Shown one piece after another: positions 40,828 through 41,740 of a stretch of DNA of 64,000 bases (positions within the stretch are counted from its first letter, which is position 1; each line of letters begins with the position of its first letter). The position numbers and the translations under genes were made by a program. This stretch comes from Acidobacteriota bacterium. GTDB taxonomy: Bacteria > Acidobacteriota > Blastocatellia > UBA7656. The notes under the pieces are model-generated. The model was given only the letters and a program-made list of their open reading frames with translations, was not told the origin of the DNA and ran no database searches. The DNA is taken from NCBI GenBank assembly GCA_040754075.1, contig JBFMDH010000001.1, forward strand, positions 166,262-230,261. The letters are read 5' to 3'.

Positions 40828-40840
40828 AAATAAAGCGATT

Positions 40841-41125
40841 ATGGCAAAAGTTACAGTTAAGGTTAAAAAAGGGAGTGGAACGCAGCCAAGAAAAAAGATA
40901 AGGGAACTTGGCGAACAATTGGATTTGAATGAGAGCCTTAATTCATTGGTTGCTGCCATGCACGACTTTGAAGCCAAATACGGTATGAGTACCCTTGAAT
41001 TTTATGTCCGTTTTGTCGCTGGTAAAATGGGTGACAGCCGTGATTTCATCAAATGGGCAGGTAGTTTTGACCTTTACCAAAATTTATTAAACACACATTT
41101 TCATCAAAATAGTAAAGCAGTTTAA
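40841..41125 (+). CDS. Hypothetical small protein (AT-rich insert, gene 1)
   Basis: About 94 aa starting MAKVTVKVKK; about 40% GC; no domain recognised. Confidence 0.35.
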   Translation: MAKVTVKVKKGSGTQPRKKIRELGEQLDLNESLNSLVAAMHDFEAKYGMSTLEFYVRFVAGKMGDSRDFIKWAGSFDLYQNLLNTHFHQNSKAV

Positions 41126-41209
41126 CCAGATAAAACTCGTTGCTGATGCTTCTCTTGACACTGACCATACACTACTTGCGCAACACACTTGATTAGGAAG
41201 TGAAGAGAG

Positions 41210-41632
41210 ATGAGAAGCATTCTCCAATATTTTGACCGCATTTCAGACATCATAGAATACAGCGAAGCAGAACTTGCTGAAATTGAATTTGAGCAAATCG
41301 ACTCAATTAGCGGAATGATCGATGGGGTCTTGTACTTTCACGACCATTCCCGGTTGGAGTTTACAGAAATCGTTACCATCCAAAAATCGTATGCACATAA
41401 CCGGTTATATCGCTATCAATACATTCAAGCCGAAGAAGCGATTTTTCGATACGACAATGCGCCACATCATCCGGATTTAGTAAACTTTCCGCATCATAAG
41501 CATATAGGTCGAAAAAAGGTTTCATCAACTGAGCCAACTTTGGCGCAAGTTTTAGATGAAATTTCCAAATGGATTAAAGATTCAGCCTTCCCTTTAAAGA
41601 AAGCACGCAAACAGCCACGAACTGGAAAATAA
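41210..41632 (+). CDS. Hypothetical protein with His-rich motif (AT-rich insert, gene 2), toxin-like
   Basis: 140 aa; FRYDNAPHHPDLVNFPHHKH motif; AT-rich; sits between purQ and purL. Confidence 0.35.
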   Translation: MRSILQYFDRISDIIEYSEAELAEIEFEQIDSISGMIDGVLYFHDHSRLEFTEIVTIQKSYAHNRLYRYQYIQAEEAIFRYDNAPHHPDLVNFPHHKHIGRKKVSSTEPTLAQVLDEISKWIKDSAFPLKKARKQPRTGK

Positions 41633-41740
41633 ATGAGACTACGAGCGCCTCTAATCCCTCTCGCCTTGATAAAGCCGCGCCTCGTCGGGTAGCATAACGC
41701 TTACCAATTCCACCCTGGAAAGATTTTACGACACACCATT

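Follow-up and report, generated by a model that had tools for sequence, protein, structure and literature searches.

The 64,000-nt stretch of DNA analysed here (the window) comes from a metagenome-assembled genome (MAG) of an Acidobacteriota bacterium (Blastocatellia; UBA7656; assembly GCA_040754075.1, contig JBFMDH010000001.1, positions 166,262-230,261). Within it, a purB-purS-purQ-purL run of purine-biosynthesis genes is broken between purQ and purL by an AT-rich cassette of two small genes on the same strand, which we name tumA and tumE. We conclude that this insert is very probably a two-gene type II toxin-antitoxin (TA) module of the TumE-TumA superfamily, the group of DUF6516 proteins defined by Durairaj et al., Nature 2023 (PMC10584680). 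The system type is already known, and the window pair extends this family described in 2023.

An AT-rich cassette between purQ and purL

The original prediction, made from the letters alone, had described an AT-rich insert at this place in the pur run, carrying two small open reading frames (ORFs) of about 94 and 140 aa, and both descriptions hold (Table 1). The cassette is foreign in composition to the pur genes: over its length of about 836 bp the G+C content (GC) is about 0.40, against about 0.54 in the flanks, and in successive 300-nt segments it stays at 0.39-0.41 over 40800-41550, compared with 0.52-0.59 in purQ and purL. Taken gene by gene, GC is 0.38 in tumA and 0.40 in tumE versus 0.54 in both purQ and purL, and GC at third codon positions (GC3) is 0.34 and 0.38 in the cassette genes versus 0.64 in purQ and 0.59 in purL. 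Alignment to the empty junctions of three related loci (L001, L021 and L025) sets the bounds of the insert at 40828 and about 41663. It starts at the first base past the purQ stop codon and ends just short of a promoter-like element in front of purL.

Both flanking genes have clear counterparts in related genomes. PurQ is 66-92% identical to PurQ of 80 Acidobacteriota loci, with Pfam GATase_5 recorded on the purQ orthologue in L081, and PurL is 52-89% identical to PurL of related loci.

Table 1. Genes and other features of the window around the purQ-purL junction, with side observations
Feature	Position	Strand	Remark
119-aa protein, 23S_rRNA_IVP	1729-2088	-	side observation
MBL-fold hydrolase	36510-37304	+	side observation
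128-aa protein, first gene of second TA-like pair	37555-37941	+	between MBL-fold gene and purB
PIN/VapC-like protein, 140 aa, second gene of second TA-like pair	37938-38360	+	4-nt overlap with first gene
purB	38348-39652	+	ORF
purS	39723-39968	+	ORF
purQ, FGAM synthase glutaminase subunit	40120-40827	+	ORF; stop TAA is left edge of insert
Inserted AT-rich cassette	40828-41663	+	between purQ stop and purL promoter-like element
tumA (ORF-A), putative antitoxin, 94 aa	40841-41125	+	
tumA-tumE spacer, 84 nt	41126-41209	+	conserved block 41155-41180
tumE (ORF-B), putative toxin, 140 aa	41210-41632	+	
Codons of FRYDNAPHHPDLVNFPHHKH, TumE residues 79-98	41444-41503	+	family signature, candidate active site
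purL promoter-like element TTGATA-N18-TAGCAT	41666-41695	+	consensus scan; 45 nt upstream of purL ATG
purL, FGAM synthase large subunit	41741-44029	+	ORF; right flank
UPF0175 protein, first gene of third TA-like pair	45720-46064	+	after GNAT gene
DUF3368 protein, second gene of third TA-like pair	46054-46542	+	

The downstream gene encodes a TumE-family protein

The product of the second gene matches Pfam TumE (PF20126, formerly DUF6516) with an E value of 5e-24 and 84.6 bits, where the gathering cut-off is 23.4, and the match spans profile positions 1-78 of 81. The PADLOC model PDC-M44B also matches it (E 9.6e-20). The protein is identical to NCBI entry MEW6125581.1, titled "MAG: DUF6516 family protein [Acidobacteriota bacterium]", and one Blastocatellia homologue already carries the name "toxin-antitoxin system TumE family protein".

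A histidine cluster in this protein had been singled out in the original prediction, and it turns out to be the His/Arg/Lys signature of the family (FRYDNAPHH…PHHKH, within FRYDNAPHHPDLVNFPHHKH), since its residues are invariant across TumE homologues. In an alignment of 29 homologues with 35-68% identity, the invariant positions are F43, L49, E53, Y67, R80, Y81, D82, N83, A84, P85, H86, H87, P94, H96, H98 and E117, and the window protein matches every one of these columns; H95 and K97 are conserved in at least 90% of the sequences. The signature is a candidate active site, and residues that stay invariant down to 35% identity offer targets for mutagenesis in a toxin family that has no structural relative.

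An AlphaFold2 model of TumE (pLDDT 87, pTM 0.79) has a helix at residues 4-16, seven strands and a second helix at residues 111-125, in agreement with the published fold of two helices and a seven-stranded antiparallel sheet (PMC10584680). In the model the signature starts at the end of strand 5, spans the following loop and enters strand 6, and residues 127-140 (41588-41629) form a basic, disordered C-terminal tail with pLDDT below 50. The family is large: a profile search returned 2,202 representatives of 50%-identity clusters at E<=1e-3, and two motif patterns alone pulled at least 537 relatives out of metagenomes. No TumE relative was found in viral contigs, and PHROGs gave a weak match only, to a family of unknown function (E 0.0045).

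The upstream gene and the conservation of the pair

Translated mechanically, the first ORF would run from a TTG at 40802. We take its start to be the ATG at 40841 (not 40842), so that the protein begins MAKVT, because 94 aa is the commonest length among 84 homologues and all 35 aligned TumA sequences begin with MA. This protein, deposited at NCBI as MEW6125580.1 under the title "hypothetical protein AB1757_00840", matches NCBIfam TumA (NF045776) with E 1.4e-7 and 31.6 bits, over residues 33-82 only of the window protein and with a profile of 76 positions, and matches PADLOC model PDC-M44A with E 3e-8. No Pfam family matched it, RelB and PhdYeFM included. Its homologues share the invariant core YGMST.EFY..F.AGKMGD.RDFI.WA, and its AlphaFold2 model (pLDDT 79) consists of three helices with a disordered N-terminus. 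The PDC-M44A match and a conserved synteny support the homology of this protein to TumA.

The synteny recurs in metagenomes. We surveyed 81 metagenomic tumE loci (80 from the motif scan plus L082) and found a tumA homologue directly upstream of tumE in 78; the other three end at a contig edge. The same order, tumA before tumE, is seen in L002, L081, L082 and L164. Both genes are under purifying selection, with ratios of nonsynonymous to synonymous divergence (dN/dS) of 0.07-0.10 for tumA and 0.08-0.11 for tumE, at saturated dS. The two ORFs are therefore not chance reading frames, given this selection on both and the margin by which TumE exceeds the Pfam cut-off.

A variable junction in related genomes

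A scan based on PurQ yielded the 80 Acidobacteriota loci mentioned above, the best of them from Blastocatellia MAGs with PurQ identity of up to 92%. The purQ-purL junction could be read in 67 relatives, 34 of them close (PurQ at least 79% identical, purL found) and 33 more distant, and the gap between the two genes ranges from 2 to 3,808 bp. Two of the 67 carry tumAE, 44 lack any insert of at least 303 bp, 18 hold other identified cargo and three have a longer gap of unidentified content. The tumAE loci are both among the close relatives (2 of 34, against 0 of 33 distant ones), and in 31 of the 33 distant relatives the gap is at most 199 bp. The pair is accordingly not conserved at this position across the lineage, and none of the 81 metagenomic tumE loci has pur genes next to it. 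This is the outcome of the comparison of relatives that the original prediction had proposed, and it leaves the reading of the two genes as an insert standing.

Among the 34 close relatives, 20 carry identified cargo at the junction, tumAE in two of these. Thirteen junctions are empty, with 77-303 bp between the genes, and one of 446 bp holds no known cargo. The two tumA-tumE loci (L002 and L081) have a third ORF besides. The remainder hold RelB-like/ParE genes (four loci, one of which, L036, also has a ribbon-helix-helix (RHH) and a PIN gene), a minus-strand esterase (five), a minus-strand Met-zincin of about 900 aa or its remnant (five), a Zn-ribbon protein (three) or an FGE-sulfatase alone (one). 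The purQ-purL spacer is thus an insertion-tolerant spot in this lineage.

The Met-zincin loci provide a view of what happens to cargo after it arrives. The gene is intact at the junction in L009, L017 and L024, and L011 has a partial match of 64%. In L018 the gene (DUF4953) is reduced to frameshifted fragments at 4966-6135, between purQ and purL; cargo therefore decays in place.

An element in front of purL may account for the tolerance of this spacer. Of 70 sequences scanned, the window included, 26 have TTGATA-N17/18-TAGCAT in front of the purL ATG, at a distance of 41-47 nt in 25 of them and of 34 nt in L015. All 26 belong to the closer set (PurQ identity of at least 80%), with copies among L001-L048 and in L081. 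The presence of the element does not depend on the cargo before it, and distant relatives, whose gap is short, lack it. At the minimal junctions of L021 and L025 the element comes straight after the purQ stop. The window's copy is a putative purL promoter. Insertions would then be tolerated because cargo falls between the purQ stop and purL's own presumed promoter, which is a plausible explanation for the record of insertions here.

History of the cassette

The tumAE cassette occupies the identical site in about six other contigs. Exact-protein look-ups place it between purQ and purL in L081, L164 and two other JGI contigs, and each of these four has a third ORF of 126-129 aa without a family match. 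This ORF follows tumE at 3216-3629 in L002, 5466-5855 in L081 and 3466-3855 in L164 (129-137 aa); the L002 and L081 versions share 76% identity, Pfam and NCBIfam gave no match for it, and the window has no copy. The ORF may encode a third part of the system or be separate cargo. In L163 (JGI Ga0376053_0228518) an orphan tumA at 1103-1400, 78% identical to the window TumA, stands without tumE, the third ORF or the purL promoter-like element. The window, L002, L081, L164 and L163 share one left edge of the insert, the purQ stop TAA with AAAT directly after it.

By PurQ and PurL identity, the window pairs with L001 and L002 with L081, at 89-92% within and 82-89% between the pairs. The cassette genes have diverged in step with these host genes: between the window and L002 identity is 82% for PurL, 72% for TumA and 68% for TumE, and between L002 and L081 it is 90%, 82% and 79%, respectively. 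L001, the closest relative of the window, has a 301-bp gap and no cassette. That gap was searched for remnants of the cassette and none was detected; homology there is confined to the final 77 nt, the presumed purL promoter region.

Because the cassette sits at an identical site in about six contigs and its divergence parallels that of purQ and purL, we regard its acquisition as old rather than recent. The most economical account is one old insertion that was passed down vertically under selection and later lost in part or in whole in some relatives, and the co-divergence and the shared boundary favour a single gain over independent gains at a hotspot. Under this account the cassette would have inserted between the purQ stop and the promoter-like element of purL in an ancestor of a small Blastocatellia subclade and then have been inherited vertically under purifying selection; L001 would have lost it entirely, and L163 appears to retain the antitoxin only. 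Across relatives, then, the junction offers a natural series of TA turnover, from empty sites to TumAE, TumAE with the third ORF, an orphan TumA, other TA families and unrelated genes, so that three TA families and an orphan antitoxin are found at this one variable Blastocatellia junction.

Spacers and expression

The tumA ATG lies just 13 nt past the purQ stop. A consensus scan found no promoter upstream of tumA on the plus strand, and no terminator was found after tumE. In L163, purL starts 10 nt past tumA without the promoter-like element, which implies that purL can be transcribed through purQ and tumA. On these grounds, read-through from the pur genes is likely. An Rfam scan of 39600-42000 gave no match, so that no riboswitch or other known RNA accounts for the spacers.

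The spacer between tumA and tumE is unusually long in the window and measures 66-74 nt in L002, L081 and L164, lengths confined to the pur-junction clade; at other tumAE loci, tblastn alignments of the two genes lie only about 7-20 nt apart. Within it, the islands TTGACA, TACACT and CTYGCG (CTTGCG in the window) align with those of L002 (about 2740-2765), L081 (about 4950-4975) and L164, and they are conserved although synonymous sites are saturated. No consensus -10 hexamer lies at the correct distance in this block. An internal promoter and an operator are our guesses as to what it might be.

A probable toxin-antitoxin module and its alternatives

The assignment of the cassette to the TumE-TumA superfamily draws on what is shown here: the family to which each gene belongs, their pairing, the selection on them and their occurrence across relatives. 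It agrees with the original prediction of a TA-like module, which the Pfam TumE, NCBIfam TumA and PDC-M44A matches and the functional pairs in E. coli (PMC10584680) now place in a named family. Six gammaproteobacterial TumE proteins were toxic in E. coli, each neutralised by its cognate TumA, and the TumE of A. tepidum cut 35S-methionine incorporation, indicating translation inhibition (PMC10584680). By analogy with these homologues, the window TumA, as a small helical antitoxin, is thought to bind and neutralise TumE, and TumE set free would be expected to arrest growth by inhibiting translation. The likeliest route is an endoribonuclease activity arising from the cluster of invariant or conserved residues R80, H86/H87, H96/K97/H98 and E53/E117. 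The module might serve addiction or stabilisation, or a response to stress or phage.

Several observations pull the other way. The 67.3 bits (E 1.2e-18) that TumE scores against NCBIfam TumE (NF045777) do not reach the equivalog cut-off of 90, and TumA scores about 32 bits where its equivalog cut-off is 100. Residues 1-31 of TumA (40841-40933) form a basic N-terminal segment outside the NCBIfam profile, and the basic tail of TumE, though common to its 17 closest homologues, is missing from relatives of 125-130 aa. A tumA-tumE spacer of 84 nt is atypical for a tightly coupled TA operon. The RNase activity of TumE was proposed and is "yet unproven" even in validated members (PMC10584680). Searches of solved structures up to April 2026 gave no match for the models or profiles of either protein, single-sequence and profile searches returning coiled-coil and low-complexity noise only, and no catalytic analogy for TumE follows from them. 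As for the history, parsimony on four taxa does not distinguish a single gain with a loss in L001 from two independent gains, and L163 is one 1.6-kb metagenome contig in which misassembly is possible. The scores place the window TumE in a divergent subfamily, homologous to the validated proteins and outside the NCBIfam equivalog boundary. This subfamily, with an extended TumA, a basic-tailed TumE and sometimes a third ORF, widens the family past the tested Gammaproteobacteria.

It is also conceivable, if unlikely, that tumAE serves mainly in abortive infection, with phage infection freeing TumE, translation stopping and the cell being killed or arrested. This idea overlaps with a TA module and is compatible with it. 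Its basis is the match of both proteins to PDC-M44A and PDC-M44B, which belong to a set of 145 phage defence candidates (PDC) that Payne et al. predicted from homologues embedded in BREX, DISARM or type I restriction-modification (RM) systems, and which are explicitly untested (bioRxiv 10.1101/2024.01.29.577857). The window copy lies among purine-biosynthesis genes and not in a defence island: its neighbours are purB, purS, purQ, purL, an MBL-fold hydrolase gene and a GNAT gene, with no RM, BREX or DISARM genes adjacent. In addition, no paper that we found names PDC-M44, and the lack of TumE relatives in viral contigs means that there is no sign of a phage-borne counterpart or an arms race.

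Alternatively, the cassette may have arrived recently on a mobile element such as a transposon, an integron cassette or a prophage remnant, as its strongly deviant GC and its patchy occurrence among relatives would suggest. We consider this very unlikely. A repeat search found no direct or inverted repeats flanking the cassette that would fit target-site duplications or the ends of an element. The window contains no tRNA, and no integrase or transposase gene lies between purB and the GNAT gene. The same site and left edge recur in at least five other contigs, with divergence that matches that of the host genes and saturated dS. The original proposal of horizontal acquisition is supported and can be refined: the acquisition is an old event that has left no mobile-element scars.

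That the two genes are decaying remnants without present function is harder still to credit. Loss does occur at this junction, as the lone tumA of L163 and the Met-zincin fragments of L018 illustrate, and the window lacks the third ORF of L002, L081 and L164. Both window ORFs, however, are intact and full length compared with their homologues, none of the invariant residues is missing, both proteins give confident structure models and dN/dS stands at about 0.1. Finally, a role of tumAE as lineage-specific purine-biosynthesis factors, for example modulators of the PurS/PurQ/PurL FGAM synthase, is close to refuted: the genes do share a strand with purQ and purL, begin 13 nt past purQ and are kept at the site under purifying selection in several genomes, but the site is empty of genes in L001 and 12 more close relatives and holds unrelated cargo in 18, none of the 81 metagenomic tumAE loci adjoins pur genes, the GC3 of 0.34-0.38 is foreign beside 0.59-0.64 in purQ and purL, and the family is by experiment a TA system (PMC10584680).

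Returning to the TA module, we also considered a more ambitious and distinctly unlikely joint proposal, in which the purQ-purL spacer of this Blastocatellia subclade is a dedicated landing pad and TumAE is wired into the purine operon. The pad would repeatedly take up, exchange and lose unrelated TA modules (TumAE, RelB-like/ParE and RHH/PIN) as well as other cargo, and tumA would be read through from purQ while the TTGACA-containing spacer element gave tumE separate control. If this were true, the balance of toxin and antitoxin would track purine-biosynthesis transcription, making the pair a purine-responsive growth brake.

For annotation, the TA reading is well supported and places in the TumA-TumE system two proteins of an uncultured acidobacterium that had been titled "hypothetical protein" and "DUF6516 family protein".

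Other TA-like pairs and neighbouring genes

Two further TA-like pairs lie in the window, each set between conserved genes. Upstream of purB, the first gene of one pair encodes a protein without a family match and the second a PIN/VapC-like protein, which matches NCBIfam VapC with E 3.4e-16 and Pfam PIN with E 0.0017, below the cut-off. The syntenic L081 lacks the VapC/PIN pair and has about 220 bp between the MBL-fold gene and purB. The other pair, downstream of the GNAT gene, matches UPF0175 (Pfam E 2.8e-27) and DUF3368 (E 2.1e-10); L081 lacks it as well and has a GMC oxidoreductase gene after GNAT. Several of this genome's intergenic spacers have evidently taken in small TA cassettes.

Two more genes drew our attention. 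The product of the MBL-fold hydrolase gene weakly matches Anti-Pycsar Apyc1 (E 1.4e-4), its 21.8 bits falling short of the cut-off of 50, and it is probably an ordinary MBL-fold enzyme, because the gene is conserved in synteny in L081. Near the left end of the window, the 119-aa protein matches Pfam 23S_rRNA_IVP with E 1e-40 and a bAvd-like model with E 1.2e-8, below the cut-off.

Comparison with known systems

The closest known system is TumE-TumA itself, for which the literature naming DUF6516 that we found comprises the Nature paper, its preprint and one genome note. DUF6516 proteins were described as having an alpha+beta fold of two helices and seven strands with no match in the PDB, and their genes as lying mostly downstream of a small partner gene (PMC10584680). 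The partner, TumA, was described as a remote homologue of RelB, and an AlphaFold-Multimer model of the complex is a dimer of dimers (PMC10584680). The window pair resembles this system in the Pfam match, the two-helix, seven-strand fold, the invariant RYDNAPHH…PHHKH and the small upstream partner homologous to TumA. It differs in its host, Acidobacteriota rather than the Gammaproteobacteria of the validated pairs, to which the demonstrations of toxicity belong, in scoring under both NCBIfam equivalog cut-offs, in a 94-aa TumA with about 30 extra N-terminal residues, in the basic tail of TumE, in the 84-nt spacer and in its place within a pur cluster.

PDC-M44 is similar in that its two component hidden Markov models match the adjacent window genes, and we therefore take PDC-M44 to be the TumAE pair under another name, although the window copy sits in a pur cluster and is not embedded in a defence system. 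RelBE and ParDE share with tumAE the form of a small bicistronic pair with the antitoxin gene first, as well as the likeness to RelB claimed for TumA, and they have come to occupy the same place: a RelB-like/ParE pair stands at the identical purQ-purL junction in L006, L015 and L032, and a RelB-like gene in L036 and L037. TumE differs from RelE and ParE in lacking similarity to them in sequence or fold, and TumA in having no Pfam RelB or PhdYeFM match. VapBC is represented in this very genome by the TA-like pair of PIN type 2.5 kb upstream of tumAE, likewise set between housekeeping genes. PIN, however, is an unrelated fold with acidic, Mg-dependent chemistry, whereas TumE carries the His/Arg/Lys signature.

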